In this document: positions 19,125 to 40,491 of the stretch, in pieces
How the letters are laid out: the number at the start of each line of letters is the position of its first letter
Position numbering within the stretch: position 1 is the first letter of the stretch
Virus record (IMG/VR): IMGVR_UViG_3300031656_000001
Source: a virus
Reading direction: 5' to 3' (one strand)
Length of the DNA: 64,000 nt
The notes under the pieces: generated by a model
Seen by the model: the letters and a program-made list of their open reading frames with translations, nothing else
What the model was told of the DNA's origin: nothing
The model's database searches: none
Translations under genes and position numbers: made by a program

Positions 19125-19592
19125 TTAGTAGTTGTTTTTTTGGCGATTTACATTTTCTTCTGCTTTAGCGAAATAATAGTTGTATGCTGTTTTTGCATCC
19201 AAGCCAATAGAAGCTGCATAGTTAATAAAGAAATGGAGAATATCTACCCATTCCATAAATAATTCTTTCTTATCACCTTCGGAAAGATCTGATACTTTCA
19301 TCGTATCATATTTTGTAAAGTCTTTTTTCCAGTATTTCCAGACTGCATTTCCAGAACCATCTTTAATACCTCCAAGTGCATCTGTCATTTCATGTATCTC
19401 ATCAACTACTGCGTGAGTGTTAACATGCCAGAAATTCATTACCTCTCGTAACGTCATATCTTCAAAGTTAAAACCATAAGTCTGCTCTTGCATCTTTTTT
19501 TGGTTTTCCATGATGTCTGCTAAATGTGTTGTTGATTTGGTGTAAAAGTCTTTTACTTCAAGATCTTTGCATTCATTGTCTATATTTGCCAT
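19125..19592 (-). CDS. All-alpha dNTP pyrophosphatase (dimeric dUTPase / gp56 dCTPase-like)
   Basis: E..E, WKYWK, EWVDILHF, K..EN..RQ...Y. Confidence 0.85.
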   Translation of the reverse strand: MANIDNECKDLEVKDFYTKSTTHLADIMENQKKMQEQTYGFNFEDMTLREVMNFWHVNTHAVVDEIHEMTDALGGIKDGSGNAVWKYWKKDFTKYDTMKVSDLSEGDKKELFMEWVDILHFFINYAASIGLDAKTAYNYYFAKAEENVNRQKNNY

Positions 19593-19646
19593 TTTGTATT
19601 TTTTGTTATATTAATAATATGTGTATTTGATTAATAGTTTCAACTA

Positions 19647-20543
19647 TTATCTGTCCATTTCTAGAATTTGTCCCCATTCTCTTTGAGAGTCTGTTATAAT
19701 TTTTGTTTGATCAGATTCTGGTCTAGGATCTCCACCTACATTCCAGAACCATGCTCCTGGTTTTCCATGTTTCTTCATAAATTCCCATGCTTTTGCATCG
19801 TAGTTATATGCACTTGGAAATGGTGGCATTTGATCAAGACTTACGTTTTGATTAAATGGTTTAGGATGAGACCACATTTCAGCTCTACCTCTTTCACCTG
19901 TTTTGATATTACGAGCAACTGCAACTGCATGAAAATCTGCATCAGGCCATGCAATCTGTAATGATCTTTGTAATACTCCTGTAGAAATTGCTGACCAAAC
20001 TTCTTCTGGATATCCGTGTTTTTCTGCAAGATCATATGCAACTTTCACTGCGGCTGCTGTAACTAATTCGTGCTTAAGTCCTAGTGGAATAAACGTTGCG
20101 TTGTTATCTTCTGCCCATCTTTTAGCATGTGCGTTAAGGTTTGGCATAGCAGCAACTCTTTTAAATTTCATTTCTGCTCCACGTTCAATACATATCGCTT
20201 GATGATCTGAAATTTCTTTTTGTGATGGACTAAATAATACTAATTTTTTATTGTATTTTTCTGCAAGATATGCAAGTGATATACCTGCAAATCCACACCT
20301 TGGCTGTACATATACTAATGTATCTGTTGGTGCTGATTGAACTAAGATATCACCAAACCTGCATTTAGAACCAAATCCCATTAAATCTTCTCTTACGACT
20401 TTAAATCCATCATGTTCTGTGATAACTGGTTCTGAAAATGGATCTTTCCAATCTCCTGCTAAATCTAACCAAGCTTGACGATTTGGCATCATCAGATTAA
20501 TATCTTGATTCATTAGACTTTTTGTGTGTTTGTTATGTGCCAT
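19647..20543 (-). CDS. PLP-dependent enzyme (fold type II) of phage DNA-hypermodification type
   Basis: VVREDL...GSK.R (PLP lysine), G.AG.SLA, S..STG, YDAKAW, FWNVG. Confidence 0.75.
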   Translation of the reverse strand: MAHNKHTKSLMNQDINLMMPNRQAWLDLAGDWKDPFSEPVITEHDGFKVVREDLMGFGSKCRFGDILVQSAPTDTLVYVQPRCGFAGISLAYLAEKYNKKLVLFSPSQKEISDHQAICIERGAEMKFKRVAAMPNLNAHAKRWAEDNNATFIPLGLKHELVTAAAVKVAYDLAEKHGYPEEVWSAISTGVLQRSLQIAWPDADFHAVAVARNIKTGERGRAEMWSHPKPFNQNVSLDQMPPFPSAYNYDAKAWEFMKKHGKPGAWFWNVGGDPRPESDQTKIITDSQREWGQILEMDR

Positions 20544-20546
20544 ATT

Positions 20547-21224
20547 TTAAAAGTTTGTTTTGTTGCTACCTAAATAACCAGGTGCGGTCATTTCCTTATT
20601 GTGATATTCCATAATTTTATCTCTTGCTTCCACTGCAGTATCTACGATTCTAAATAAGTCAAAATCCGATGGACTCATTTTATTACTTTCCAATACAGTA
20701 TCTTTTAGCCAATCAATTAATCCTGACCAATAATCTTTTCCAACTAATACTATTGGGTATTTTACGTTGTGACCACATTGAGCTAATGTAATTGCTTCAA
20801 ATAATTCATCTAGAGTTCCAAGTCCTCCTGGAAATACAACGAATCCTTGCGAATATTTTAAGAACATTACCTTTCTTGTAAAAAAGTATCTGCATTCCAT
20901 TCCTAAATCAACATATTTGTTCATACCTGATTCAAATGGCAATTCAATGCCAATTCCTATAGAATTACCTGAAACTTCATGAGCTCCGTGATTTGCTGCA
21001 GCCATTATTCCTGGACCTCCGCCTGTAATTACTCCGAATCCTTCACATGATATAAGCTTAGCAAATTCTCTTGCTTCGTTATACCATTTACTACCTTGTT
21101 TTGTTCTTGCACTTCCGAATATCGATACACATGGTACATCTATTTCATTAAAAGTGTCAAATCCTTTTGTAAATTCTCCTTGAATTCTTAGAATTTGCCA
21201 TGCATCATCTGCTTTATTTTTCAT
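20547..21224 (-). CDS. LOG-family (SLOG) nucleotide phosphoribohydrolase, TIGR00730-like
   Basis: SIFGSAR, ITGGGPGIM, YFFTRK, PGGLGTLDELFE. Confidence 0.92.
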   Translation of the reverse strand: MKNKADDAWQILRIQGEFTKGFDTFNEIDVPCVSIFGSARTKQGSKWYNEAREFAKLISCEGFGVITGGGPGIMAAANHGAHEVSGNSIGIGIELPFESGMNKYVDLGMECRYFFTRKVMFLKYSQGFVVFPGGLGTLDELFEAITLAQCGHNVKYPIVLVGKDYWSGLIDWLKDTVLESNKMSPSDFDLFRIVDTAVEARDKIMEYHNKEMTAPGYLGSNKTNF

Positions 21225-21235
21225 CTTGTTTGTAT

Positions 21236-22375
21236 TTATTCGTTAGGGTAATTCTTACCCCAAATGTGACGTGTTGTTTCTGCGTTTACGATAACATCCT
21301 CTGTTGGATGTTTTGCTAAATTAAATGCTCCATCAAAGATCCAAGTATATGGAATTCTTTTAGTGGGAGATTTAATACCATGACTGATTGCGATGTGTTT
21401 GTAAAAAAAACATGTTTTATCCTCTACATTTAACATCGTTTGAGTAGTCATTGGATTACTTGGATGATCTGATAAAACTTGCATTTGTCTAATCCATTCT
21501 TCAGCATGTTTATTCTCTGCTATAAATTGACCATCTTCGTCAATTGAGTATTTTACTTTACCATTTAAGTTTGGTCCTCCAAAGATTTGCATCATACCAT
21601 CAAAATGTCCAGTTCCACCAAAAAGCACTGATTCTGGATCAACTAGATCCGGTCTACTCATTGCAACATATCTTGCAGTGTTTTTACATGGATATAATGG
21701 ACTTCTAAAGTTTTGATGTTCTTTAAAATAAGCTTCTAATATTTTAGCAAATTCCATCATAGTGTATGGTCTTTCTAAATTCTCTAAAATATGAGCCATA
21801 TCTTTGGCTGCTTTTTTAGGTCCTTCTAATAACCAATCCTTAACTATTGTGCCCTTTGGATAATATATTTGAAATAGATCATTACGAGCATGTCTGTTTT
21901 CAACAAAGTGTTTTCTTGTTTTTACTTCACCGTCATTGATCAATCTATTAATAGTTCCCCAATGTTCATTACTAAAAGAAAATACTATTGTATAATATAA
22001 TAGCTTTTCTAAATCTGTTTCATGTTTCATCATATAACAATATGGATGTTCATGCCAGTGTAATCTATGTGAGAATATTTGGTAATCTTCTAAAAGTAAG
22101 CTGTCTTGTCTCTTATCAAAAGCATGACAGAATTCAAAGAATTTATCAAATCTTTCTTCTTGAGTCCAATCCTTCATCCAACTTTCCATTGGTTTTCCCT
22201 TTTTCATTAGGATTTCAGAAGTGCCTTTATATGATATATTGTGTTTGTTCATTTTGTCATTTCCGTTAAATTCAAACAAACTATTTTTTAAAAAGTTTGC
22301 ATTACTTGAACCATTTTTTGGATTAAATTCAATTATAAGTTTCGTATCCTTTTCCAATTCTTGTTCTTTATTCAT
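21236..22375 (-). CDS. Amino-acid:DNA transferase (aGPT-pyrophosphorylase)-like protein, paralog 2
   Basis: D.LL..YQIF..R, GTG..DG...IF, E..C.FYK patterns align with the aGPT-Pplase1 layout as recalled; paralogous to neighbour. Confidence 0.55.
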   Translation of the reverse strand: MNKEQELEKDTKLIIEFNPKNGSSNANFLKNSLFEFNGNDKMNKHNISYKGTSEILMKKGKPMESWMKDWTQEERFDKFFEFCHAFDKRQDSLLLEDYQIFSHRLHWHEHPYCYMMKHETDLEKLLYYTIVFSFSNEHWGTINRLINDGEVKTRKHFVENRHARNDLFQIYYPKGTIVKDWLLEGPKKAAKDMAHILENLERPYTMMEFAKILEAYFKEHQNFRSPLYPCKNTARYVAMSRPDLVDPESVLFGGTGHFDGMMQIFGGPNLNGKVKYSIDEDGQFIAENKHAEEWIRQMQVLSDHPSNPMTTQTMLNVEDKTCFFYKHIAISHGIKSPTKRIPYTWIFDGAFNLAKHPTEDVIVNAETTRHIWGKNYPNE

Positions 22376-23594
22376 ATGTCGTTGGTAGTATACTATTTAT
22401 TTTGCTTTTATATTCGGCGGCCGTTAGGTTAACAGATGCTATAACTTTGTCATCTGATGGAAATGATGTGATACCATTGAATGTGTCTACTAGACCTAAT
22501 TCTAACATCGCTTTCTGTCTTCCATATGGATGATCTAATATAAATGAACTGTTCCAAATACCATCAAAGTCTATATGATTATATGCCGCGCCCGGTCTTA
22601 AATAGTTTTCAATCCATCTAATAAAATCACATGCTACATCTTCAGCATTATATGGTAAGCTTCCTGTATCTTCGTATATTCTTGTCATTACTGCATCCAA
22701 GAATTCTTCACTCTTTTTACCTTTCTTTTCAACAGGATCTGCAAGATATCCAATGCATTCTACTGCATTTGTACCATAATAAAACATTGATTCTCTGTTT
22801 ACATATTCTGGATACCAATCTGCTAAATCTGCAAGAACTGCAGCATACTGGAATCTATAAGCTCTTAGGCCATTATCAGCATTCCACTTAAACATCCATT
22901 CTCCGATCTCTCTTAAATCTTTTTTACCGTCACTTCTTAAAAAGACAGCTAAGTCTCTTGAAAGTCTTGGTGCAAATTCACATAAGAAATAATCTCCGCC
23001 TCTTTTGTAAACATATTCAGGTTCTGTAAACGATTCCATACCTACAAAACTATCTTCATTACCTGAAGGCTTTGGTGGTTTAGGAAATGCTGGAAACTGA
23101 TAACCAACTGAAGTATAAAATGGCGTAGGATGATATTTAATAACCTCGCACATTTCTTCAATTGTTTTACATTCATGTAATGCAAAGATAACTGTGTTGT
23201 GATAACCAGATGGTTTGGTAGCATAATTAATTGCACTACCACAAACTCGATGTAGAATAAACAGATATAACCATTCTTCTAATCCAAAGTCTTTGTGCTT
23301 TCCAGTCCAGTTTTTGGCAACTTCTTCTCTTTGAGGGAATATTTTGCCGGCTTTCATGTGTTCCCAATATGGATGATCTTCTGTCCAACCATAAAAACAA
23401 TCGTTTATGATCTGACTAAAACCTGCATATTTTCTTTCCACTACATCATATAAGTGCACGTGTTCCATTAAAGGATCATTCATGCCGCTTTCTTCATGTG
23501 GTACAATACCTAAGTTACTAAGCTCTTGCTGTTTCTTAGCAAGTTCAAAGTATCTCAAAAACTCATCGTAATATTTAGTAGTTTTTATTTCCAT
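22368..23594 (-). CDS. Amino-acid:DNA transferase (aGPT-pyrophosphorylase)-like protein, paralog 1
   Basis: DPLM....YDVV.R, ADL, GTNA..C, ED..CDF.RW patterns; next to PLP enzyme. Confidence 0.6.
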   Translation of the reverse strand: MEIKTTKYYDEFLRYFELAKKQQELSNLGIVPHEESGMNDPLMEHVHLYDVVERKYAGFSQIINDCFYGWTEDHPYWEHMKAGKIFPQREEVAKNWTGKHKDFGLEEWLYLFILHRVCGSAINYATKPSGYHNTVIFALHECKTIEEMCEVIKYHPTPFYTSVGYQFPAFPKPPKPSGNEDSFVGMESFTEPEYVYKRGGDYFLCEFAPRLSRDLAVFLRSDGKKDLREIGEWMFKWNADNGLRAYRFQYAAVLADLADWYPEYVNRESMFYYGTNAVECIGYLADPVEKKGKKSEEFLDAVMTRIYEDTGSLPYNAEDVACDFIRWIENYLRPGAAYNHIDFDGIWNSSFILDHPYGRQKAMLELGLVDTFNGITSFPSDDKVIASVNLTAAEYKSKINSILPTTYE

Positions 23595-23595
23595 C

Positions 23596-23739
23596 TTATT
23601 CTATGATTTTCCATTTGAATGGATTTCTATTTCTTTGATATTGTTCCATAACCCACTCTATATCCTTTGTTTTTATTTCAAACGAATAAGATTCTTTAGT
23701 GTCGTCATGTGGTGTGATGAGTATTTTGTATTTTTTCAT
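23596..23739 (-). CDS. Small hypothetical protein (47 aa)
   Basis: Manual translation MKKYKILITPHDDTKESYSFEIKTKDIEWVMEQYQRNRNPFKWKIIE; exactly fills the gap (1-3 nt spacing). Confidence 0.7.
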   Translation of the reverse strand: MKKYKILITPHDDTKESYSFEIKTKDIEWVMEQYQRNRNPFKWKIIE

Positions 23740-23742
23740 ATT

Positions 23743-24837
23743 TTAAAAAAGTGACATAGTTTGTTTAATTAATTTAGCATTAGGTTCATTACTGGTTAAA
23801 TCCCATCTGTAATATTCCCTGGCGATATGAACTGATTTTGGCTTTTCCATTACGTCAAATGTTAATTCATTTTTAGAATTATAATAAACTTCTGGATGTT
23901 TATGTGATTGCCAATTATTTCTTTCACACATACTGTCTATACCATCATTGATTTCTTTGACCAATGCAGTTCTTTGTGCCCATGTTCCTGCAAATGGTGT
24001 ATCTTTATAATACCCTGTTTTTGGTAAAGCTCTACTTTCATTTTCAATTGGTAATACATGAACAACTTCTATTTCTTTTATTCCACGTTCGTACATTTCA
24101 CGTAGTTCATTTTCAAAGTCAATTAGTATTGTTTTAACTGAAGCTGACGGGTTACTTTGTCTCATTAAATGGTGTCGCACATCAATGTTGCCCATGTAAA
24201 CCCTAAGAGATTTGACCCATGGGTATATGTATGCATCTAAACCTTTTTTGAGTGCGCCATGCATAGTCAAACCATCATGACGTTGTGTCATATAACCTGG
24301 TGTATACTGACTAAATGAATGGCTATCACCAAAGCACAGTTTATCAGTTTTTTCAATGCAATCAATTCTTGGAATATCTACAGCGCATATTTCCTTTATA
24401 TGATCAACTTGAGAATATCCATCCGGTCGTACATCGCCTAATTGTTTAAACAAATCAGTTCCAGTATGTAATCGTTGATCAATCAACTTGCCAATACATG
24501 GCATGTCATGATGTAAAGAATAAATCAACGTACTGCTAAAAATTCTCATGATTTGATGATATAAATCATCATTAGCGCCTCCGAATATATTGAAGGTACC
24601 TTTGAATTCCATACCATGTTCTAATAGAATTGCATCAAAGTCATCCCAGTTTGTTGTAATATCTGTGATCACTTCTACGTTTTCATAGCCAGCATTCACA
24701 CATTGATTTGCTAGGTGAAATGCCCAACCTGATTTATGCGAGCTAATTTTTGGACTTAATTTACCAACCAATGCTGCTATTCCAATTTTAGCAGACTTAT
24801 CTGAAATATAGTCAGTAAGATATTTGAATTCTGTCAT
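23743..24837 (-). CDS. Hypothetical protein with C-terminal SGNH/GDSL-like domain
   Basis: FGDSHS (block I), GNID (block III G-x-x-D), SVH near C-terminus (block V His). Confidence 0.55.
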   Translation of the reverse strand: MTEFKYLTDYISDKSAKIGIAALVGKLSPKISSHKSGWAFHLANQCVNAGYENVEVITDITTNWDDFDAILLEHGMEFKGTFNIFGGANDDLYHQIMRIFSSTLIYSLHHDMPCIGKLIDQRLHTGTDLFKQLGDVRPDGYSQVDHIKEICAVDIPRIDCIEKTDKLCFGDSHSFSQYTPGYMTQRHDGLTMHGALKKGLDAYIYPWVKSLRVYMGNIDVRHHLMRQSNPSASVKTILIDFENELREMYERGIKEIEVVHVLPIENESRALPKTGYYKDTPFAGTWAQRTALVKEINDGIDSMCERNNWQSHKHPEVYYNSKNELTFDVMEKPKSVHIAREYYRWDLTSNEPNAKLIKQTMSLF

Positions 24838-24843
24838 ATGTAA

Positions 24844-25146
24844 TTATTTAATAGGATCTTCAGTTTCACCATAACCATGTTTTTCAACATAATTATCAAG
24901 AGCACCTAAATATGCAACCGCATCTAATAGATTATCTTGTTTATAGTTATAAGAGTGTCGGCTTAATTTCAATGCAACAAGTGCAGCATACATATCAGAT
25001 CCGTTAAGATCTTTACCAGTCATGCCATTGAAAACCATAGCAGCTCTACGCATACCTTCTTCAAATGGACCATATTGTCTGGCCTTTTCTTCTGATCGCT
25101 CGTTAACAATTTTATTAGCTTCAGCTAAAATATTTAATTTACTCAT
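24844..25146 (-). CDS. DUF6378-like all-alpha putative nucleotide pyrophosphohydrolase
   Basis: IL.EA..IV, QYG, LKL.R, DN.LD...Y pattern. Confidence 0.6.
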   Translation of the reverse strand: MSKLNILAEANKIVNERSEEKARQYGPFEEGMRRAAMVFNGMTGKDLNGSDMYAALVALKLSRHSYNYKQDNLLDAVAYLGALDNYVEKHGYGETEDPIK

Positions 25147-25262: not shown

Positions 25263-25292
25263 AAAAAAAGCCAAACAAAAAAATGTTTGGCT
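25263..25292 (-). terminator. Intrinsic terminator ending the late cargo island
   Basis: agccaaaca/tgtttggct stem, followed by U-run on minus strand. Confidence 0.7.
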
Positions 25293-25333: not shown

Positions 25334-26152
25334 TTAATACTCAAATGGAGGTGTTCCGTAATCTGCTCTTTTAACAGCGAACCACATTCTTCCTATAACG
25401 AAATACCAGAATCTATCTGTTTCAATTATATAGTGTTCTCCTTTAGGACTCGTAGACTTATAACCACCTCTTGTGAAGTTCTTAGTTACAGGTACTCCGT
25501 CTTCCCATGTTTTATCAGTTGATTGTGCTTTGAATGATTTACCACTAAATGTAGCTAAATGAATTTCTGGATTCATCTTATCAGATTCCATATCTTCTGC
25601 AAATTGATCTATGCCTCTTGGTTTTTGAGCATCTGCTTCATTAACTTTAGATTCATTAAATGATTTCATCCATTCTGCTAATACATTTCTTGCTTCGCTT
25701 TTACTAAGATCAAACTCTTTTTGTAAATATGGAGCTGCACCAAACATATTGGTTTTACCAGAATCTCTTAGTGTTAATAGAAAGTCATAATAAATTCTAT
25801 CTTGATCTGAAGTTTTATCAACTCTAGATTCGTTTACTTTAGAATAAAGTCCTTTATCTCCGTTCCATTCCCAATCAGCTTCATCAAAACCTTTAAGTTT
25901 TTTAGCTTTTTGATAATCTTCAGATGACAAATGAGATTGTTTAAGATTTACTCCTTCTGATATGAAAGATTCTAATGTTTTTAAGTGTTTCATTCTTTTC
26001 TTTTTCTTTTTATATTCTTCTTCGGCATCGCCACTACCAGCTGGTACATCACCAGAACCTAATGTTCCGTTGCCCGGTAATTCTACTGGACCCATACCTG
26101 ACATTGCTGCGGTTGAAACTGTTTCTGTTAATTTTTTGCTAATATCTGACAT
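25334..26152 (-). CDS. Multi-module protein with internal CTS-like tag
   Basis: Internal MKHLKTLESFISE (ATG 25993); modules bounded by ISE/VNE; contains LRDSGKTNMFGAAPYL module. Confidence 0.55.
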   Translation of the reverse strand: MSDISKKLTETVSTAAMSGMGPVELPGNGTLGSGDVPAGSGDAEEEYKKKKKRMKHLKTLESFISEGVNLKQSHLSSEDYQKAKKLKGFDEADWEWNGDKGLYSKVNESRVDKTSDQDRIYYDFLLTLRDSGKTNMFGAAPYLQKEFDLSKSEARNVLAEWMKSFNESKVNEADAQKPRGIDQFAEDMESDKMNPEIHLATFSGKSFKAQSTDKTWEDGVPVTKNFTRGGYKSTSPKGEHYIIETDRFWYFVIGRMWFAVKRADYGTPPFEY

Positions 26153-26153
26153 A

Positions 26154-26474
26154 TTAAGCTTCTAAAAACTTTTTAGCTGCGTCTAATAACTCAGCATATG
26201 TGAACTTACTAGATAATGCATTTGATAAAACAGTTCCATCTTTTTTACCGGAAGCGTACATATCTGTACTATCAAATCCAATTCCTTCTGACCATGGTTT
26301 TTTAGGATCAAATCCTAGATCTGAAGAAAGAGATTGTGCCAATGAAGTGTTTCCTCTAAATTGATCGTCATATGATAATTTATCATCTCCGAATGTAGAA
26401 GGATCTACTGTTTTTCTACCTTCTGTTACTGTTTTCTTTGAGATAAATTCCTCGTATAATTTAGTGCGTTTCAT
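26154..26474 (-). CDS. CTS-like-leader protein (start revised to ATG 26474)
   Basis: MKRTKLYEEFISKKTVTE; upstream ORF-track extension overlaps the previous gene. Confidence 0.6.
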   Translation of the reverse strand: MKRTKLYEEFISKKTVTEGRKTVDPSTFGDDKLSYDDQFRGNTSLAQSLSSDLGFDPKKPWSEGIGFDSTDMYASGKKDGTVLSNALSSKFTYAELLDAAKKFLEA

Positions 26475-26481
26475 AACTGTT

Positions 26482-27531
26482 TTATTTTTGGTATCTTTTA
26501 ATGTCTTTAATACTATCCCAAACCTTCTTGGCACAATCTTTTATATTTCTTTTATGATATGCCATATCATAACCAGCGTTATATTCGTGCGCATCTAGAT
26601 CAGTGTAATGTACATATGTTGAAAATCTATTCAATAGAAAGTCCATGTGTTGCAAAATACCTGATATTTTATATTTATGGCTACCAGTACCTATCAGAAT
26701 ATCACCTTTCGAATCTCTATGTCCGCGAGCATTTGCGTTTGCAATAATCTCACCTATTAATTCTGTCGCTTCTTTAACTTTCTTATCAAGTGGCATTGCA
26801 AGAGCTCGATCTGCTATGATATCTTGATATCTTGCATGTGTTTGTTTTCTAAAGTCTTTATCTGATATGAATGCAGTTGCTCCTTTCTGAGCAGCTTTTC
26901 TTTCATCTTTAAGGTTTACCGTAGAATATCTTGCAGTAAGAATATCTAAATCAAGACAATAGCATATATCTGCAGTTCTTGCTACTTTCATAACAGTATC
27001 TAGACCTGTATTTCCTTTGTCGATTCCTGCTGAATCTTTCCTTTTAGATTGTTGAAGTTCTTGATGTCCATCAACATCAGGTACAATAGTTGCATATTTA
27101 AGGTTAGAACCATGTCGTGTGTATTTATTATCTTTAGCCCAATCAATATTCATCCATTTATTATCTACATTAGTAATTGCCAATAAAGTATTTGCTGGAA
27201 TAATACCACCGTTGTATATTGATATTTCTTCATCTTTATCATATGGATTTTGTATATGGTAATCGTTTTCTTTTTCATCTGTTACAAAGTACATGTATAC
27301 TGCGTTTGCTCGTTTTTCTCTCCTAGCAACCATTGGATCCAATTCGATGATATCTTCATCTTTTATTTTATCTAATTTAAGTTTAGTCATTTTGTAAAAT
27401 GCAGCTGGAAGACCTTCTGGTAATTTATTAGCACCTGTTAATATATTTGCTAATTTAGTAGAAGCAAATGCTTCGTTTAATGATGAATCTGATTCGTTTA
27501 TGAATTGTTCAAATAATTTAATGTGTTTCAT
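26482..27531 (-). CDS. CTS-like-leader protein, paralog of 27564..28556
   Basis: MKHIKLFEQFINE...LNEAFASTKLANILTG; shared KL.LDK..DEDII..DP, YST.N...ER..A..GA.AF.SDKDF blocks. Confidence 0.7.
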   Translation of the reverse strand: MKHIKLFEQFINESDSSLNEAFASTKLANILTGANKLPEGLPAAFYKMTKLKLDKIKDEDIIELDPMVARREKRANAVYMYFVTDEKENDYHIQNPYDKDEEISIYNGGIIPANTLLAITNVDNKWMNIDWAKDNKYTRHGSNLKYATIVPDVDGHQELQQSKRKDSAGIDKGNTGLDTVMKVARTADICYCLDLDILTARYSTVNLKDERKAAQKGATAFISDKDFRKQTHARYQDIIADRALAMPLDKKVKEATELIGEIIANANARGHRDSKGDILIGTGSHKYKISGILQHMDFLLNRFSTYVHYTDLDAHEYNAGYDMAYHKRNIKDCAKKVWDSIKDIKRYQK

Positions 27532-27534
27532 ATC

Positions 27535-27566
27535 TGTTTTATTATTGTTTTATTATTGTTTTATTA
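27535..27566. repeat. Tandem 11-bp repeat (tgttttattat) x~3 in intergenic leader
   Basis: Seen directly. Confidence 0.8.
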
Positions 27567-28556
27567 CCAAGCGTATGTCATGTCTTCAATTTTCTTGATA
27601 TTATCAGCACATCTTTTTGCATATTCTTTTGCAGATTTACCATACCAATTAGAAGCTTTACCATATGCTTTGATTTCATCTTCTTCTTGTCTAACATAAT
27701 CAGCATATCTAGAGTAGTCATCTAATATATTGTTCATGTGCTGAGAAGCATCTCTTAATTTAACTTCTTTACCTTTTGATGATTTACCAATCATCGGATC
27801 ACCATATCTTGTTTTTTCACCAGACTTTAATCCAGATTTGATTTGTTCTGCTAATGAATCAATTGCATCTGCAACCATTTTGTCTAATGGTAATTTTGAA
27901 GCTTTAGTTGCTAAAATTTCTTGGTATCTTGTCATGTTATCAGATTTGAAATCTTTATCAGATTTGAATGCGATTGCACCTGATTTAGCAGAATTTCTTT
28001 CAGCTCTTATGTTCGCTGTTGAATATTTTTGTTGTAATAATGTTAAATTGATTACAATTGCTCTATCAGCAACTTCTGCAATTCTTTTAACATTATAAAG
28101 TCCCGTTGCATCCCAACCTTTATACTTCTTAGAAATACCTATGGAATCTGCTGGATTATTTCCTGTTCTAATCAATCCTCTTTTCCATGTGTTTTCATAA
28201 AAACTATTATCTCCCGATGCAAGTGCTAATAAATAACCTCCACCTGGTATAACTTTGCTACTTTCGTATGCGTCGCTTGGTGCATATGGATTTTCTTTTT
28301 GATTATCTGAAATATAAAATACGATTGCGTTATCAGACTTCTCTTTATATGCTGTCATTGGATCAGTCACTATAATATCTTCATCTTGTACTTTGTCTAA
28401 CGCTAATTTAGTTTTACCATAAAATGCCTTAGTTAATGATTTGTCAGCTTTAGAGCCTTTACCTGTTAATATGCCCGCTAATATAGCTGAAGCAAATGAT
28501 TCATTTAAAGATTCTGTGAATTCTTCGAATGATTCGAATAAAAATTTGTGTTTCAT
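27564..28556 (-). CDS. CTS-like-leader protein, paralog of 26482..27531
   Basis: MKHKFLFESFEEFTESLNESFASAILAGILTG. Confidence 0.7.
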   Translation of the reverse strand: MKHKFLFESFEEFTESLNESFASAILAGILTGKGSKADKSLTKAFYGKTKLALDKVQDEDIIVTDPMTAYKEKSDNAIVFYISDNQKENPYAPSDAYESSKVIPGGGYLLALASGDNSFYENTWKRGLIRTGNNPADSIGISKKYKGWDATGLYNVKRIAEVADRAIVINLTLLQQKYSTANIRAERNSAKSGAIAFKSDKDFKSDNMTRYQEILATKASKLPLDKMVADAIDSLAEQIKSGLKSGEKTRYGDPMIGKSSKGKEVKLRDASQHMNNILDDYSRYADYVRQEEDEIKAYGKASNWYGKSAKEYAKRCADNIKKIEDMTYAW

Positions 28557-28597
28557 GTTTATATTGTTTTGTTTATTGTTTTGTTTTTAATATGATT

Positions 28598-30043
28598 TTA
28601 ATCTGATTCTGAGCCAATTATTGCAATCTGAGGTATACCATTGTAAAAATCAATAACCGATTCCGATACATCAAGAATGTCCGATACTGCGCGGTGCATG
28701 TGGTTTATCTGCTTACCATATTCGCCATCTTCTCTTAAATATATTATAATTGAATTTGGTGAAACTGAGCCCTTTCCAACATCAGTTGTTTCTGGATAGT
28801 TACCTCTACCTGAATATCTAGTAGAAATTACTTCGGCTTTAAGCATATCTTTCCAATATTCTTGGAATCGACCAGTTCTTAATGTAACTCTAATGAAATC
28901 ACGATGTTTCAATTCTAATGAAAGTTCTAGCTCCTCGCCTCCATTTGTCCATTCAGCACGAATCTGTTCCTTTAGGTTAGCATTAACACCTTTTAAAATT
29001 GCTGATTTTACCTTTTTTAAATCTGAAGGATTATTCATATAATCCATACTAGTTGGATTCTTATAATCTTCAACTTCTTCATTCCACAATGACTTTACTG
29101 TTTCTTTAATACCTGGAAATGGAAATTGTCTTTTTCCAATTTTTAACGACTTGATGTTAAAACGACTTCTTGTAGCCTCGTTTAAAGATTCTGTGAATTC
29201 TTTAAAGCTTTCAAATATAAAATTTGTTTTCATGTTATTGTTTTGTTTATTTTCTATTACTAATTTTGGATTCTTGTTTAAAAGCTCTTCCATATCTAAT
29301 TCGGTTAATGCCATAAAACTGTCTTCACCGTATTTTTTGGCTAATTTGTCAGCTCTCTTTATGTTTATTACTCTTGCAATCTCATCATATGATAATGTTG
29401 CTATTCCGAATTCTCCGAATATTTCTTCTGCATTTGCATTTGCTATTTTAAAAGCACTTGCCTTTTCATTAATATCTGGTGTATTTATAACCGGAGTTAA
29501 TTCGTTAAGTACTCTTTTACCTGTTTTAGAAAGTGTAATTCCATCTTCGCTTACATTTAAATAAGTAGAGTTTCTTCTCATCCATCTGCCAGAATCCGTA
29601 GTCATTTCTCTTAAAATCGTATTGAATTCTTCTTTGGTAATTTTACCATCTTTGATAGCTTCTAAAACTTTGTTTCTGATTTTAGCTGCTTTACCAACTT
29701 TAACTGCTGGGTGATTTTCAGTATACTTTCGTTTTACTGTGATGTGTCTTTCAGTTAATGACTCTTCTAATTTCTTAGCTGCTAATTTAGAATCTTTTTT
29801 AGAAACGTTATCTAAATAAGAACCTTCTCCCCAAAAAGAAATAACTGCCTTAGTATCTGCAGTAGAATGGAATCCAGAACCTGCTTTGTAAATTGCAATT
29901 TCTTGTAAACCTTTTTTGTTTTCTATAGCATCAGACATGAATGCTCTTGCATCTTTTTCTGATTTAAACTTTTTTGCAGCTCTTATCCCATCAGAATAAT
30001 GTACTTCGAAATTTTCATTTATGTGATTGTCAAATGTATCCAT
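28598..30043 (-). CDS. Multi-module protein with N-terminal and internal CTS-like tags (start revised to 30043)
   Basis: MDTFDNHINE; internal MKTNFIFESFKEFTESLNE (ATG 29233); late promoter-like site at 30063-30071. Confidence 0.6.
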   Translation of the reverse strand: MDTFDNHINENFEVHYSDGIRAAKKFKSEKDARAFMSDAIENKKGLQEIAIYKAGSGFHSTADTKAVISFWGEGSYLDNVSKKDSKLAAKKLEESLTERHITVKRKYTENHPAVKVGKAAKIRNKVLEAIKDGKITKEEFNTILREMTTDSGRWMRRNSTYLNVSEDGITLSKTGKRVLNELTPVINTPDINEKASAFKIANANAEEIFGEFGIATLSYDEIARVINIKRADKLAKKYGEDSFMALTELDMEELLNKNPKLVIENKQNNNMKTNFIFESFKEFTESLNEATRSRFNIKSLKIGKRQFPFPGIKETVKSLWNEEVEDYKNPTSMDYMNNPSDLKKVKSAILKGVNANLKEQIRAEWTNGGEELELSLELKHRDFIRVTLRTGRFQEYWKDMLKAEVISTRYSGRGNYPETTDVGKGSVSPNSIIIYLREDGEYGKQINHMHRAVSDILDVSESVIDFYNGIPQIAIIGSESD

Positions 30044-30062
30044 TTTTAATTTGTTTGTTTTA

Positions 30063-31910
30063 TTATATATTTTTGATAAATTCATCAAATGTCAAAGTGT
30101 CGTCTTCTGATTCTGTTACGACTCCCATGGACTCTTCTAATTTAGCTTTTAATTCTTTATACATGTTATGTATTGGTTTCGGTGTAAGCTTCTTAAACAA
30201 CTTCTCATCGTCATCTAACATTGCGTTTCTAACCTGTGTTGCTGAAATGTTTTTACCTGTTCTTGGTATTTCATATAATCCGAAATCAGGTCTAACGCCA
30301 AGATCTTCTCTATAAGAATCTTTATTTACTTGGAATCCATAAGTTTTCATTCTATCACTTCCAGTTCCCCATAATACTGGTTCGTATTTAGGTCTCATTG
30401 CATTAAACATGTGATCAATTCCGCCTGTCGGTATTACAAATACTTCTTCTATAGGATATTTGCTTTTTAGATTCTTAATCATTTCGACTTGTGTTTCTTC
30501 GTCGAATGGTCTCTTAAATGCATCTTCTGCTTTTTTAGTCTTAGACTTAACTAAGAATATTACAACAGGAAATCCATTCTGTTTGTGAATTGTTTCTATA
30601 ACTTTAATATGTCCTAATGTAAACGGTTGAAATCTACCAACAAACATGTTAACTGGTGTTTTACCTTGTTCTGGATAATTAACTGTCAATGCTTCTAATA
30701 TTGGAGTTTCTGTATACTGCAGTTTTTGATTAACTAAATATGATTTAAAGTTCATAACATCATTTTCATTGGTTTTCGCCATAACTGACGTTTCAATAGC
30801 ATCTACTATTGAATTGATCTGATTCATTAAATCTTTATTAATGATGTCAGTTTCTTTGTGTCTTGTTTTTCTAAAACTGCCTAAAGCAATTTTAAATAAT
30901 TCTGATAAGATTTCATTCTGAACTAATGATAAAGTCTTTTCATTTTTTATGAATACTTTATTAAGTTCAAAACCTTTCCTTTCTGAAAAATCTGCAGAGT
31001 TGAAATTAGTGCCGACATATTTTGTTGCGTTCTTTTCAACATACGCATTAAATATATTAGAGATTATTTCAATGTATCTTGAATCAGCCTCTTCTTCTTC
31101 TAACTTAATAGCAGTAATGTCAAACGCAGTAATAAATTCTACCAAATCCAAAATTGAAAGTTGGTACATATCAGATGGTTTTCTTGCTTCTTGTGGCTTT
31201 CTATCAAATCTCTCCAATTTAAAGCTTTTCATGCCTTTACCATCAGAGAAATTAATTATTAAACCATCAATGTCATTATCTAATGAATGATTTAACGCTG
31301 GAGTATTAAGTCCATTGTTGAATATGTTGTATATTGTTCTTGTAAAAGATTGTGATCCGTATTTGATTTCAAAATCTTTATCTGATATTTCTAGAAGATT
31401 AAGTAGATCATCCTTTTGATTAGATTGTAGTTTACCTTGGAATATAACAGGAGGTCTTTGTGCTCCTAATAGATCTGCCCATTTATTTAAAATAACAGGA
31501 TCTCTAATAACCTTTTTGACTTGTGTTAAATCATTTGGTTTTAATATTTGAATATGTGTTAATATTAAATGATTTTTGGGTAAAGCATCGTATTCAATAT
31601 CTACCGTTTTATTATCTAACATATAATCAAATCCAAACTTCCAATCCAATGGCATATCTTCAGTCAATTCTGTTAATATAGTATTGAAATACTTAATACC
31701 ACTTTCATAGTATTTAATCATCGTCCTGTCTACTCTGTCCATTGCATGTTTTGAACCACTTTTGAAGTATTCAAACCCTGTTTTAGTTCTTTTAACATGG
31801 AAAGATGACGCTTGTATCTTTTCTGATACGACACATGGAATATCTAACATTGACACGAAGTCATTGATGTTAGATGATTGATAATACGTTCTTAAGTTTT
31901 GTAAAGCCAT
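30063..31910 (-). CDS. Fusion of degenerate ligase-fold domain and HIGH-family (cytidylyltransferase/NMNAT-like) nucleotidyltransferase
   Basis: N-half EKIQAS, DGLII, SFKL; C-half GRFQPFTLGH, GSDR, ISATQVR. Confidence 0.7.
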   Translation of the reverse strand: MALQNLRTYYQSSNINDFVSMLDIPCVVSEKIQASSFHVKRTKTGFEYFKSGSKHAMDRVDRTMIKYYESGIKYFNTILTELTEDMPLDWKFGFDYMLDNKTVDIEYDALPKNHLILTHIQILKPNDLTQVKKVIRDPVILNKWADLLGAQRPPVIFQGKLQSNQKDDLLNLLEISDKDFEIKYGSQSFTRTIYNIFNNGLNTPALNHSLDNDIDGLIINFSDGKGMKSFKLERFDRKPQEARKPSDMYQLSILDLVEFITAFDITAIKLEEEEADSRYIEIISNIFNAYVEKNATKYVGTNFNSADFSERKGFELNKVFIKNEKTLSLVQNEILSELFKIALGSFRKTRHKETDIINKDLMNQINSIVDAIETSVMAKTNENDVMNFKSYLVNQKLQYTETPILEALTVNYPEQGKTPVNMFVGRFQPFTLGHIKVIETIHKQNGFPVVIFLVKSKTKKAEDAFKRPFDEETQVEMIKNLKSKYPIEEVFVIPTGGIDHMFNAMRPKYEPVLWGTGSDRMKTYGFQVNKDSYREDLGVRPDFGLYEIPRTGKNISATQVRNAMLDDDEKLFKKLTPKPIHNMYKELKAKLEESMGVVTESEDDTLTFDEFIKNI

Positions 31911-31957
31911 AGTGTTTTTTGTATTCAGTATTTAATAATCTAGATTATGTATCTTAA

Positions 31958-33241
31958 TTATCTACCGTATTTTATAATACCCATTAGCTGATTTATCGCA
32001 GCATATGTTCCTGTAAGTTTCATTGTTTTACCTTTATATATGAAAACAATACCTTCAGTTGGTATAATAGATTCAATACCTCCGATTCGTTCAAGTCTTT
32101 CAAGTTCTGAAACAACTTTCTCTATTTGTTTAATATCTCCACCCTTTTTAACCTTGTCAGCCTCTGTTCTAATTTGAGTATGTAACCTTTGCATTTCATC
32201 ACTTGGATTTGCAGCAACAAAGTTACTTACATTTTTAAGAATAACACTTCCAAGTTCTAAGAATAAATCCTCGAAAGGTCTAATGTTTTCTTTGTATTTC
32301 TTTTTAACATCTTCCTTGTCAAATTTCTTAATGGCTGCTGCTTTATCTTTTCCAAGATCTTTATCAAGAGATCTTAAATTAAGCGTCTTTTTATCACCAT
32401 ATGCCCATCTTAATAATAGACCTTCTTTTTGATCTTGCGATATATCTGGGAAATTAGATTCTATTTGATCTCTCCACCACATTTCGTGATATCTAGAAAC
32501 TTCATCAGCATCTGTTAATTTATATACAGCTTTTAAGTCTTCTACTTTTTTGATGAATTTATCTTTGTTCTTTTCAAAATCAATATCCTTTCCTATCTTA
32601 ACGATTTGGGGTGGAATTACAGTAAATGTATTACCAACATCTGCCTTAACTTTTTGTAGAGCTTTAGCAATTGAAGATGCATATTTGTTATCGTCACCGA
32701 TTATATTACCTTCACCGTCAGTGTGCTTAATTCCATGAAATTGGATTATATCGCGATCATAGTAAATTACATTAGGGTTCTTAGAGTAAATCAATTCCAT
32801 ATTCATGAAACTCTTACCGTTGTTAAACACTTCTAAATCTTTACTTGGTAATTTTATCAATGCTTGTGCTAAATCTTCAGCAGCAAATTGAAATGTATCT
32901 TGTACTAATGGACTAGGATGTCCTTCAAACTTCTGTTTAAAATCTGCTAACGACATTGGAGATTTCATATCACCTTTGTTTCTTGCAAATTTAGCTTCTC
33001 CGTCTTGTACTGTAGCGAATACATTTTGACCATCCGTTTTTTCTGTAGGCTCTTCATCGAATGTTAAATTACCAGAAAGTCCTGCACTTATGATCTCTTT
33101 AAAGTCTCCAAATGTTAAATCTCTTTCATCGAAAGGATGCGACATGTGTCCTGCTGCACCGCCTTCAACAATTAAGTCGTCTAATATAGATACGTTTACT
33201 TTTTCAACTAGAAATTGTTGATATGATAGAAATTGTTTCAT
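31958..33241 (-). CDS. ATP-dependent ligase/capping-fold nucleotidyltransferase (RNA-ligase-like) with CTS-like leader
   Basis: Motif I EKTDG, ARNK, motif III-like NMELI, IV EGIVF, V MKL; leader MKQFLSYQQFLVE. Confidence 0.65.
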   Translation of the reverse strand: MKQFLSYQQFLVEKVNVSILDDLIVEGGAAGHMSHPFDERDLTFGDFKEIISAGLSGNLTFDEEPTEKTDGQNVFATVQDGEAKFARNKGDMKSPMSLADFKQKFEGHPSPLVQDTFQFAAEDLAQALIKLPSKDLEVFNNGKSFMNMELIYSKNPNVIYYDRDIIQFHGIKHTDGEGNIIGDDNKYASSIAKALQKVKADVGNTFTVIPPQIVKIGKDIDFEKNKDKFIKKVEDLKAVYKLTDADEVSRYHEMWWRDQIESNFPDISQDQKEGLLLRWAYGDKKTLNLRSLDKDLGKDKAAAIKKFDKEDVKKKYKENIRPFEDLFLELGSVILKNVSNFVAANPSDEMQRLHTQIRTEADKVKKGGDIKQIEKVVSELERLERIGGIESIIPTEGIVFIYKGKTMKLTGTYAAINQLMGIIKYGR

Positions 33242-33260
33242 TGTTTTGAGTTTTATTATT

Positions 33261-34847
33261 TTAACCTAATGAGTTTGTTAAGATTCCAACTGCTGTTCCG
33301 TAATCTCCATCAGATTTAGCTAAAATGCCATCAATTACCTTTTGTGCCTTTGCTTCGTCAAATTCTTCACCGAATGCTTTTTTCAATACAGTAGTTGCAT
33401 ATTCTTGAAAGTCTTCAATTGAAGAAACTTCAGCTTCAGTAATTTCTGCTTCCGATAATGAATTTCTTAAACCACAGTGTTCACATTCTACTGTTCCGTC
33501 TTTGTCTATTTCTTTATATGAATGTCCTTTTTTATTTGAACACTTAATATCTTCATTGACTTTAGATTCTTCGATGTATTCTGCCAAGTCAGCGTCATCC
33601 CATCCATATTCGTCATCTGCGAGTACTGCTGTTATATCTTTTCTTTTTCCTGTAAGTTCAACTTCTGGATGACCAGATGGTCCGTTCATATCCAATATTT
33701 CCATTGTAACTTTATTCTTCTTTAGTAATTTTGCAAGTCCTTTAGATTTAGGATCAATTGCATCCATTACTGCAGTTGCTTCGCATATATTTTCATTACC
33801 TTCAAATGCCATATTAAATGCATTTAATAATGATTGACCTGCTGCTTCTTCTTTCATGCTCTCTAAATAAAGTGCTGTACCTTCTACAATACTAATACCT
33901 GCCCAACTTGCTGCATTTGCAAGATCTGAATAATATTGATCTAATACTCTCTTAGTTGTTGTTGCACCAATCTTAACGAAATAATTACCTAAGCCTGACA
34001 TTTTAATTTCAAAGCTTTTAATTGATCCTTTAATGTTTTTAGAAATCTTGAAACCTTCTCTTGAAAAGTTTGCGTCTTCCATTGCCATTTCAAATAAGTA
34101 TTTAATACAACCTAATTTACCTTCTTTAGACATTGCACCTAAATCAGTTAATTTCTTAGCGAATAAATTATTATAAACAGTAGCTACTTTTTTAGCGTCT
34201 CTTTTATATTCTACTTTAATTGCTTCATTTACTGAAGCTGAAAGTGATTCGAATGCAGGATATACGTCATCGTGACCTTTACCGTAAAGATCTGCCATTA
34301 ACCATTCTTTATTACCTTCATCCCATAAATAAACAAATTCTGCTCCACCTTTATCATTTGCATCTCTTAGATATTTAGAAATATTAGATATGCTTCCTGT
34401 AGATGGTTTACTATTATCTCCATAGAAATTCATTTTATTCATAGCATCTAAACCAGAACTATCTCCTCTTTTAATTACATCGTCAACGTTTTTACCGTTT
34501 TTGTAATCTTTTTGAAGAAGTGGTAAAATGTTTTCTGGATATGAATCATAATGAGTATAAACTGAAGTGATATTACCTTTTTTGTCAATTTTACCAAACT
34601 GACCTCTTGTACCTTCTTCAATAAGTGAAAGTGCTTCATTAACTTCTGAATCCCTTAGCTTGATGAAAAAATCAGATCTTTGATCTTCTGTTAATTCTTT
34701 TACAGATGTAACTTTGAATTCAGATAATAAATTCTTGTAAGTTTCTGCTTCGTTTGATCTTTTTGTAGAAGCGTCTTCTTCTACTGTTCTAGCATTTGAA
34801 ATCTTTGCCTCTGTGGCATATTGTTCAAAAGATTTTAATTTTTGCAT
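33261..34847 (-). CDS. Multi-module putative polyprotein with CTS-like leader (start revised to 34847)
   Basis: MQKLKSFEQYATE; at least five modules separated by VNE/IEE/ICE/ITE; late promoter at 34885-34893. Confidence 0.6.
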   Translation of the reverse strand: MQKLKSFEQYATEAKISNARTVEEDASTKRSNEAETYKNLLSEFKVTSVKELTEDQRSDFFIKLRDSEVNEALSLIEEGTRGQFGKIDKKGNITSVYTHYDSYPENILPLLQKDYKNGKNVDDVIKRGDSSGLDAMNKMNFYGDNSKPSTGSISNISKYLRDANDKGGAEFVYLWDEGNKEWLMADLYGKGHDDVYPAFESLSASVNEAIKVEYKRDAKKVATVYNNLFAKKLTDLGAMSKEGKLGCIKYLFEMAMEDANFSREGFKISKNIKGSIKSFEIKMSGLGNYFVKIGATTTKRVLDQYYSDLANAASWAGISIVEGTALYLESMKEEAAGQSLLNAFNMAFEGNENICEATAVMDAIDPKSKGLAKLLKKNKVTMEILDMNGPSGHPEVELTGKRKDITAVLADDEYGWDDADLAEYIEESKVNEDIKCSNKKGHSYKEIDKDGTVECEHCGLRNSLSEAEITEAEVSSIEDFQEYATTVLKKAFGEEFDEAKAQKVIDGILAKSDGDYGTAVGILTNSLG

Positions 34848-34884
34848 AATATTATTTTTATTTTTGTATGTAGTTATTATTTTA

Positions 34885-36393
34885 TTATATATCTCCTTCA
34901 AAATCCACATTTTTTATATCGTACTGGAACTTCTGTTCCCTGTAGATTCGTTGTCTTTCTTTAGAATGTCTCATTAGATAATTATCCCAATCAGGTGAGC
35001 TTAGATCATCTACGAAATCAATGATGTTTACAAAGTCTTTTGATGAGTGTTGTCTTAATCCACGACCAATTGATTGTCTAATTACAACTTCTGATTTAAA
35101 TGATTCTGTAAAGAATATGTTGTGTATTTTGTTAATAGAAATACCTGTTGAGAAAGTTCCATAAGATGCAACAATAACAACCTCTTCACCTGCTTCCATT
35201 TTCTTTTTGTGTTCTTCTCTAACATCTTTGTCAATTCCACCATCAACATAATATACAGTCTTATTACTTTCTTGACGTAACTTTTCGTATATCTTTTTAC
35301 CATGTTCAATTCGATGGAATAAAACTAAACCATTACCTTTTACTTTAGAAATGATATTAGTTATGAAATTAAGACGTCCTGGTGAGTTAATCACATAGTT
35401 TTGCTCAAACTTATATACATCTTTTGATTCATATCTATTCTGTGACATTTCTCTGAACGCATCCTTAGTTGACTGTGGTGCATAATCCATTTTTATAACC
35501 TTTACTTTACAATGAGCAATATACCCTTCATTTTGTAAATAGTTTGCACTGATCTCTGTAATCAAAGGGCCAGTATATGCCATTAATGTCAGTCTGTCTA
35601 ATGTACCTTCTTTTGGTATTGTACCTGACAATCCAAATTTGTAATCAGCGTTAAGACATTTTTGTAAGATTGTTTTAATTGAAGCAGATTTTGCTTTATG
35701 TGTCTCATCTACAATAACTGCATCGAATTCTGCAAAGTATGCTTTATCCTTTTTGACAAGTGATTGATATGTACCAATAATAACGTTTCTACCTGGTCTT
35801 AATTTTTGGCCACTATAAATTTGTTGTACTTTAATATCTATAGCATTTCTATAATTATAATCTAAGAAATCTTCACTGGCTTGTAATACCAATGAAACAT
35901 TAGGTACTATAAAAAGTATTTTCTTTGCTTTTTCGTGTTCTAATAAGTATGCTACGGTTAGGAATGATATAAGTGTTTTACCGGCAGAAGTCGCCAATTC
36001 ACTTAAACATCTTTTGAATTTTAATATATTGAAGGCTGCTTCTAATTGATAATCTCTCGGTTTGATTTCCGATTTATCAAAGAATGCTAAAGCCCATTCG
36101 TTAAATCTTTCTTGATTAATACCAGTATCAAATATCTCTGCAATACCATTAAGTTTAAACTCAAACTTATAGTCCTTGCATATACCCATGACTTCTCTCC
36201 ATAAACCAGCAGGAATCCACTTATCATCTTTAATATATGATACGTATCCATCCCATAGTCCCTTTTTAACCAGAGGGTTAAATCGCCATGACTCAATTCT
36301 TTTATTCAAAGATATATTGAGTTGTTCTAATTCTAGTTCAGTTGCGTCGTCAATACGAAGCAGCTGCTTGTTTTCAGTTAAACTAAGCTCCAC
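34885..36393 (-). CDS. uvsW: SF2 DNA helicase UvsW
   Basis: WDG, PRDYQ, ATSAGKT, DETH, GLSGT, QSIGRGLR. Confidence 0.95.
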   Translation of the reverse strand: MELSLTENKQLLRIDDATELELEQLNISLNKRIESWRFNPLVKKGLWDGYVSYIKDDKWIPAGLWREVMGICKDYKFEFKLNGIAEIFDTGINQERFNEWALAFFDKSEIKPRDYQLEAAFNILKFKRCLSELATSAGKTLISFLTVAYLLEHEKAKKILFIVPNVSLVLQASEDFLDYNYRNAIDIKVQQIYSGQKLRPGRNVIIGTYQSLVKKDKAYFAEFDAVIVDETHKAKSASIKTILQKCLNADYKFGLSGTIPKEGTLDRLTLMAYTGPLITEISANYLQNEGYIAHCKVKVIKMDYAPQSTKDAFREMSQNRYESKDVYKFEQNYVINSPGRLNFITNIISKVKGNGLVLFHRIEHGKKIYEKLRQESNKTVYYVDGGIDKDVREEHKKKMEAGEEVVIVASYGTFSTGISINKIHNIFFTESFKSEVVIRQSIGRGLRQHSSKDFVNIIDFVDDLSSPDWDNYLMRHSKERQRIYREQKFQYDIKNVDFEGDI

Positions 36394-40103: not shown

Positions 40104-40472
40104 TTATATTCTTTTACCAAGACTAGCACCTAATGCGGCACCAACAAGTCTTGAGGTTAATAAATCGTAAATAATACCCTTTTGTATACCAAGGACTTTA
40201 GCAACCATCTTACCAACTGATTTACCTAGTGCAAATCCAGTAAGACCACCAATAATAGATCCAAAGAATCCTTCATTAGTTATTTCTTCGTTAAAGCTTT
40301 CGATGTCATATGTACCATCTTCATTCATGTATTGCTCATCAAATAAAGCAAGTGCTTCATCAATTCTAGCTTCTAATTCCGGAGTCCATTCTTCTTGTAG
40401 TCCTTCGTTGATTAGTTCCATATCGTTTTCAGAAATAGATTCTTCGACAATGTATTTGTTAAATGTTTTCAT
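40104..40472 (-). CDS. Acidic-propeptide / glycine-zipper membrane peptide with CTS-like leader
   Basis: MKTFNKYIVE leader, acidic first 67 aa, then GFFGSIIGG...GxxxG repeats; late promoter at 40476-40484. Confidence 0.55.
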   Translation of the reverse strand: MKTFNKYIVEESISENDMELINEGLQEEWTPELEARIDEALALFDEQYMNEDGTYDIESFNEEITNEGFFGSIIGGLTGFALGKSVGKMVAKVLGIQKGIIYDLLTSRLVGAALGASLGKRI

Positions 40473-40491
40473 ATGTTATATATCCTATATT

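Follow-up and report, generated by a model that had tools for sequence, protein, structure and literature searches.

We describe an island of eight co-oriented open reading frames (ORFs) on the minus strand, at 25334-34910 of a 64,000-nucleotide stretch (the window) of IMG/VR virus record IMGVR_UViG_3300031656_000001, whose products carry a recurring short peptide tag and in three cases join several modules in one chain. The island is likely to encode an expanded form of the internal-protein system of phage T4, in which the internal proteins IPI, IPII, and IPIII and Alt carry a capsid-targeting sequence (CTS) and are processed by gp21 (PMC9026906, PMC3012670, PMC12373910); all three internal proteins are specific restriction-enzyme inhibitors (PMC12373910). 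As judged from sequence, every testable feature of the T4 system appears to be present here except strict N-terminal placement of the tag, and the core of this reading, which combines a CTS-like tag, gp21-type sites at module borders, and loading into the prohead, has passed every computational test that was run. That tagged proteins are packaged and cut can be put forward with good confidence, and the proposal that most of the products are injected effectors is slightly favored. Genes are named below by their first coordinate.

34885-34893, minus strand: GATATATAA, a candidate late promoter that overlaps the UvsW-like helicase gene at its end
33261-34847, minus strand: six-module polyprotein with an N-terminal tag, probable start M22
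31958-33241, minus strand: tagged single enzyme, a 26-residue leader ending in L-I-V-E followed by a predicted RNA-ligase-fold nucleotidyltransferase with KxDG intact
30063-31910, minus strand: two-domain protein without an N-terminal tag, with a degenerate ligase-like N-domain and a HIGH/NMNAT-like nucleotidyltransferase C-domain
28598-30043, minus strand: four-module polyprotein, probable start M15, modules 25-108, 113-195, 208-277, and 304-495
27564-28556, minus strand: tagged single domain of ~310 amino acids
26482-27531, minus strand: tagged paralogue of 27564 (36% identity) with the clade-consensus tag
26154-26474, minus strand: tagged small cargo, 88 amino acids when mature, stand-alone or an internal module in relatives
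25334-26152, minus strand: four-module polyprotein with an internal tag at M54, modules 11-53, 67-108, 109-168, and 173-272
25269-25292, minus strand: intrinsic terminator-like hairpin with a T-run, closing the block
13501-14878, minus strand: second tagged block, three genes with four very acidic modules (isoelectric point 4.1-4.4), GATATATAA at 14911
40104-40472, minus strand: conserved tagged 122-amino-acid protein, GATATATAA at 40476

The tag has the form aromatic-x-x-F-[ILV]-x-E, with [FY]-E-x-F-[VIL]-N-E as the key consensus of 72 distinct tags and M-K-H-[IV]-K-L-[FY]-E-x-F-[VIL]-N-E, with a small or basic residue next, as the full consensus. Its aromatics, hydrophobic residue, and Glu share the spacing of residues 4, 7 (targeting), 8, and 10 (processing) of the T4 CTS (PMC9026906). 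In the loci of 80 relatives, about 65 distinct cargo clusters have it at their head, and a DNA pattern for the tag has 19 copies, all on one strand, in each of three 200-236 kb records, in which a control pattern has 0. An initial annotation of this DNA had reported eight consecutive tagged genes with further copies elsewhere, and all of the genes and tags that it quoted are present, including those at 13501-14878 and 40104. The tag is found internally or terminally on each of the eight, with 30063 lacking an N-terminal copy. Most stand-alone cargo carries the tag at the extreme N-terminus, with a propeptide of 10-19 residues as in the T4 type, 25334 has it internally, 30063 has it internally and at the C-terminus only, and 31958 has a leader of 26 residues. 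Within the window the tag is limited to the island and four other genes, three in 13501-14878 and one at 40104. A position-specific scoring matrix for the tag exceeded the cut-off (score >8) only in island and 13501-14878 genes, in 1 of 1540 shuffled N-termini, and in 0 replication or tail genes of the window, with the diverged tags of 27564, 28598, 30063, 31958, and 40104 falling under that cut-off.

The joining of modules at (I/L/V)-x-E sites, which had also been reported in the initial annotation, is borne out by two kinds of count. The island holds 15 copies of [ILV][NTE]E[AGS], where shuffles hold 1.8; the other genes hold 11, near the 8.3 of their shuffles. Plain [ILV]xE lies above its shuffle value in non-island genes too (278 versus 222), so that weight was given only to the tighter motif and to tests of position. 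Homology breakpoints inside island proteins, taken from all-against-all BLAST, lay within 8 residues of [ILV][NT]E for 361 of 769 starts (109 expected) and 333 of 833 ends (111 expected), and the excess stays when related junctions are collapsed to classes, at 0.35 versus 0.14 for 98 start classes and 0.28 versus 0.14 for 87 end classes. The resulting junction logo is E-S-x-[VLI]-[NT]-E|[ASG]. For most modules, [ILV]xE stands at the inferred start in 70-100% of homologues whatever lies upstream (54/54, 51/53, 74/74, 62/64, and 63/64 for individual modules), and five window modules are also found alone behind a full tag. A scaffold-type spread of sites through the chain was not found; sites cluster at module borders, with the first module of 33261 as the exception.

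The six-module product of 33261 illustrates how folded modules and predicted cut sites alternate. In the numbering of the long ORF its modules are 35-92, 100-229 (phrog_1987), 230-377, 378-448 (phrog_5922, weak), 454-487 (a CxxC knuckle), and 493-549, and cuts are predicted after E92/E99, E229, E377, E448/E453, and E487/E492. An AlphaFold model of the 528-amino-acid product has a mean predicted local distance difference test (pLDDT) of 85 and a predicted template-modeling score of 0.42, resembling beads on a string in which compact modules, with pLDDT mostly >90, are separated by five low-confidence linkers at E92-99, E229, E377, E453, and E487. Outside the first module, the Glu sites in this model fall between folded domains, the point raised as a test in the initial annotation. 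A stand-alone homologue of the second module in cyanophage P-SSM2 starts M-G-T-R, matching the predicted cut product G-T-R. Fold searches with the six-module model gave nothing above background (no Foldseek match at E<0.1, best VIA Z of 6.6), KH/ferredoxin-like matches of the fourth module being discounted as common arrangements, and ESM Atlas gave no usable or named match for 27564 or the second 33261 module; blank fold searches of the 33261 model are no evidence of new folds.

The other two polyproteins suggest where such chains may come from. The last module of 28598 is a fused tagged gene with its own A-rich leader retained at M285 (29233), and the last module of 25334 is found as a stand-alone tagged gene in relatives. 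Leaders retained before internal tags, together with the leader and tag repeat described below, suggest that tagged genes fuse by stop-codon loss, with the tag then decaying to a cut site, and that modules could be shuffled by recombination at the shared leader and tag DNA. Chains of unrelated 40-200-amino-acid modules, a description first applied to the whole island, are confined to 25334, 28598, and 33261; 31958 is one domain, 30063 a fixed two-domain protein, 26482 and 27564 single-domain paralogues, and 26154 one small cargo.

A candidate protease for such sites lies in the phage's own genome. The window comes from a jumbo phage related to T4; almost all of its genes lie on the minus strand, and they include portal, gp2, gp4, gp55, UvsW-like helicase, primase, gp32, and tail genes. 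The head locus was read from contig L087, which belongs to the same phage (an 11.7-kb overlap with the window has 3 mismatches), and its order is portal, a tagged 112-amino-acid gene, an S77 protease-scaffold fusion, the major capsid protein (MCP), and a second tagged gene. Peptidase_S77 is the gp21-type prohead protease, and the fusion recurs in contigs of relatives.

L087 12669-14729; L084 4770-6974; L085 5459-7459; L086 5510-7432: fused prohead protease and scaffold ORF

These fusions have a conserved V-N-E directly after the protease domain (about residues 165-167). Close to the N-terminus they also have an L-I-[VL]-E that resembles the LIE-9 site of T4 gp21. In L087, sites of the [ILV][NS]E class number three in the first 25 residues of the MCP and zero afterwards, 0 in the portal, and 11 in the fusion. 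The predicted propeptide of this MCP (L087 14844-16223; sites E6, E19, and E25) is very short when set against the 65-residue propeptide of T4 gp23. Over four genomes, [ILV][NTSE]E reaches 75 per 1000 residues in the first 30 residues of the MCP, 20 in the scaffold part, and 17.5 in island polyproteins, versus 0.9 in the portal, 1.1 in the MCP remainder, 4.3 in single-domain bodies, and 3.9 in replication proteins. Glu is specifically favored in the island polyproteins, where 655 copies of [ILV][NT]E compare with 106 of the Asp form, 42 of the Gln form, and 156 of the reversed motif. Read from sequence, the distribution over the phage's own head proteins corresponds to that of gp21 substrates and non-substrates in T4 (PMC5694885).

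Independent data on virion association, though numbers are small, come from the published virion proteome of cyanophage S-CREM2 (PMC10665884). With the tag register fixed beforehand and 219 proteins considered, the tag is present in 4 of 26 non-structural virion proteins, 0 of 26 structural proteins, and 1 of 167 undetected proteins (p=0.0012), the four being an S-adenosylmethionine hydrolase, a kinase, a protein annotated as "Cas9," and a cytidylyltransferase. CTS-like N-termini, unremarked in the original paper, are seen in the virion-detected non-structural proteins gp12-gp15 (L090 7704-13331), gp6, gp136, and gp154.

Taken together, a route in four steps can be proposed. It would begin with predicted late genes that bear, as seen in the sequence, a peptide in the T4 capsid-targeting register, either N-terminal or, in 30063, internal and C-terminal. 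By analogy with T4 and S-CREM2, the tag would then bind the prohead core, such that the proteins are built into the prohead. There the gp21-type, scaffold-fused protease would cut after Glu in (E-S-x)-[VLI]-[NT]-E|[ASG], for which motif and positions are observed and cutting is predicted. Tags would be removed, and the three polyproteins and one two-domain protein would give about 20 folded products; the 20 or more small effectors first suggested are thus approached if every junction is cut, with six of the products being domains of 190-400 amino acids rather than small. In the last and weakest step, many products may remain in the head and be ejected with the DNA like T4 Ip1-3 and Alt, and might act at once against host defenses or damage.

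Several observations weigh against this proposal. The alignment behind the 33261 model was partly built from module-length pieces, which gives less depth and lower pLDDT at the junctions, and the first module holds three motif copies within predicted helices. The S-CREM2 comparison involves five tagged genes of a distant phage, and proteomics reports virion association, not injection. Of 85 representative cargo proteins, few belong to a named family by sequence match and 0 match a known anti-defense protein; almost all of the modules go unnamed by Pfam, PHROGs, NCBIfam, and PADLOC, which give only DUF3008 (5 members), one RimK/ATP-grasp-like member, and PHROGs of unknown function. Finally, 28 of 138 distant homologues of the 31958 ligase domain carry C or M where the P1 Glu would stand, from which it follows that the ligase cut is not universal.

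The strongest competing account is that some of the cargo is core material that is degraded. In its full form, the tagged proteins would be prohead core or filler like T4 gp22, gp67, and gp68, which are loaded and cut and then degraded, exported, or used in head assembly. T4 gp22, gp67, and gp68 do share with the island proteins several internal L/I-x-E sites and, as predicted for the island, core association and late expression; the motif density of the polyproteins equals that of the scaffold, the first tagged gene of the head locus stands between portal and protease at the gp67/gp68 position, and the first and last 33261 modules are acidic, helical, and widely conserved. The protease-scaffold fusion of one relative (L084 4770-6974, residues 343-461) holds a homologue, 44% identical, of residues 326-449 of the 33261 polyprotein. 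However, the T4 core proteins are cut to short fragments that leave the head, whereas here the sites fall between compact, mobile domains, not through them. The cargo moreover includes enzymes (RNA-ligase fold, NMNAT-like, and RimK-like in a relative), and its roughly 65 families turn over among close relatives, unlike scaffolds. As an account of the whole island we therefore consider this unlikely, and some conserved modules may nevertheless serve in the core or scaffold and be broken down, not injected.

A less probable alternative is that the junction motifs are relics of gene fusion left by a shared DNA cassette, with the fused proteins packaged whole and only the outer leader cut off. Traces of such fusion are visible: leader and tag DNA form a 64-nucleotide repeat family, three internal tags keep an A-rich, initiation-like leader in front, from which translation may still start, and 46 full internal tag cores are found where 9 are expected. 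The C and M substitutions at the ligase junction would also suit uncut relics. Yet at most joints [ILV]-x-E is all that survives, with conservation approaching 100% among the homologues of several modules, and small residues occupy P1', which together point to selection on the cut site; T4 gp21 itself requires only L/I-x-E and cuts accessible internal sites (PMC9026906). We regard it as very improbable that the tag, instead of addressing the capsid, arises as a side effect of a strong cassette for late translation initiation or serves as a generic amphipathic helix for interactions, on proteins that act in the late infected cell: the repeat does take in non-coding leader DNA, but initiation leaves unexplained the C-terminal (57/57) and internal (56/57) tags of 30063 homologues, the spacing fits the T4 CTS residues, late tail genes and replication genes lack the tag, and it goes with virion presence in S-CREM2.

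With packaging and processing as the preferred reading, the enzymes of the island gain a possible context. The 31958 product is one 401-residue ligase-fold protein after its leader, 69-81% identical end to end in relatives, with E-K-x-D-G, E-G, and K-x-T-G invariant in the family. Its top 12 structure matches in VIA are all ligases (Z 8-9, root mean square deviation of about 4 Å over about 185 residues), sequence searches of the PDB gave no match, and no Pfam, PHROG, or NCBIfam model matched. The ATP-dependent RNA ligases NgrRnl, Trl1, and T4 Rnl1/Rnl2 share the KxDG motif and the fold and differ in sequence (10-15% identity), which supports assignment to the RNA-ligase fold as a separate phage family, with RNA joining a candidate activity. 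In distant phages the domain is the last module of 500-1985-amino-acid proteins, often after an N-terminal HIGH nucleotidyltransferase, and is directly preceded by [ILV]xE in 106 of 138 representatives. In the cultured Microcystis phage Mel-JY01, a fusion of HIGH transferase and ligase fold joined at I-A-E (L095 8311-10230) lies upstream of the terminase and prohead protease genes.

The 30063 product runs from its N-domain through an internal tag and I-L-E site (E406) to the nucleotidyltransferase and the C-terminal tag, and the site before the C-domain is conserved in 76 of 80 homologues. Paralogy between 31958 and the 30063 N-domain is suggested by motif reading alone, since a 31958 family profile gave no significant match to the single N-domain sequence. 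For the C-domain, CTP_transf_like and TIGR00125 pass their cut-offs, and NMNAT models are the best matches, far under the family cut-off. It is most plausible from sequence that this pair, if active, repairs RNA or restores nucleotide cofactors, and plausible that the small variable modules are defense inhibitors. Among 64 homologues of 27564, 61 carry its domain as the module at the C-terminal end of a polyprotein.

Comparison with known systems places the island closest to the T4 internal proteins. Both have a short tag with aromatics three apart and then a hydrophobic-x-Glu cut site, unrelated variable cargo behind a constant tag, a gp21-type (S77) protease in the head locus, and the same pattern of the motif over the MCP leader and the scaffold. 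The differences lie in scale, polyprotein organization, non-N-terminal tags, and enzyme cargo: T4 has 3 Ips whereas at least 19 strict-tag genes are found per genome here, with shuffled polyproteins of up to about 1100 amino acids, internal sites, internal and C-terminal tags, a protease fused to the scaffold, and enzymes of 300-400 amino acids among the cargo. No sequence match to T4 Ips, including the Ip1-3 GmrSD-inhibitor kind, was found among the cargo in PHROGs and Pfam scans. In the phiKZ-like giants phiKZ, 201phi2-1, and SPN3US a gp21 homologue likewise cuts a large set of internal proteins after Glu, and there are paralogous head proteins, but the motif is S/A-x-E, the propeptides are long, and neither a shared short tag nor shuffling into polyproteins is described there (PMC5694885). 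S-CREM2 resembles the island in its virion-detected enzymes with the same tag register and a cytidylyltransferase gene shortly downstream of UvsW, and differs in having separate genes that were not described as polyproteins, the tag and its processing not being recognized there (PMC10665884). No paper describing the polyprotein form was found, within a literature coverage that is limited for subscription journals.

Proteins injected with phage DNA act ahead of any phage gene expression. If the rule of tag and cut site holds across T4-related jumbo phages, it would provide a sequence-level list of candidate injected proteins with mature boundaries, here about 65 families from 80 loci, almost all unannotated, and would account for long "hypothetical" and "cytidyltransferase" proteins and for recurrent enzymes in cyanophage virion proteomes. 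It could further be speculated, with the chances evenly balanced, that this is a phage counterpart of viral polyprotein processing, in which the head protease cuts shuffled polyproteins into dozens of injected proteins, including a ligase/nucleotidyltransferase repair pair (possibly activated by an exposed conserved N-terminal Gly), and a mobile leader and tag cassette recruits genes into the capsid. In that case the tag would give the phage's injected counter-defense proteome straight from sequence.

The transcriptional frame of the island is also as first annotated, with a candidate late promoter motif ahead of the block and a terminator-like hairpin behind it. The probable true starts are 34847, 30043, and 26474, not those of the longest ORFs. 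GATATATAA has 8 copies in the window where 2.7 are expected, a number reached by 2 of 100 shuffles; all lie on the coding strand, and the portal, tail genes, and each of the three tagged blocks have a copy upstream. In 63 of 63 relatives the motif lies ≤60 nucleotides from the helicase stop. The copies at 17675 and 39327 precede non-structural genes (an nrdB-like gene at 16671-17648, and a 60-amino-acid ORF with gp32), so the motif is not limited to virion genes. A promoter-like motif after 30063 (58 of 74 relatives) overlaps the last codons and stop and was not counted as independent. Among 80 IMG/VR loci the frame of helicase, polyprotein, 31958, 30063, and polyprotein is kept, in many together with a DUF6378 gene, but the loci differ in which small tagged genes they hold and how many, and in the modules that make up the polyproteins.

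Outside the island, the leader and tag DNA cassettes at 13501-14878 are near-identical, and the four tagged modules there have net charges of -15 to -17 over 78-132 residues; that they are DNA-mimic anti-restriction proteins is speculation. The 40104 protein has [ILV]-x-E at about residue 23 in 65 of 65 homologues. A 394-amino-acid unannotated protein adjoining gp55 (2690-3874) has 9 [ILV][NTSE]E sites (23 per 1000 residues, scaffold-like) and no tag, with 12 sites in a homologue, and is probably a prohead core protein as judged by this density. The nearest deposited matches of a close relative's MCP fall among uncultured huge phages, Flavobacterium MaF61, Sphingomonas PAU, Chryseobacterium MA9V, and Lak, and the A-rich leaders without a Shine-Dalgarno sequence presumably reflect a Bacteroidota host. 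Two genes that lie apart (11423-12631 and 17706-19124) together encode DNA polymerase B, which is split in S-CREM2 too. The region 19125-25146 holds a group of dUTPase-like, PALP-like, and unannotated enzymes (21236-24837) that may encode DNA modification. In one relative the UvsW-like helicase gene (L062 4740-7911) is broken by insertion of several ORFs, a possible intron or intein remnant.

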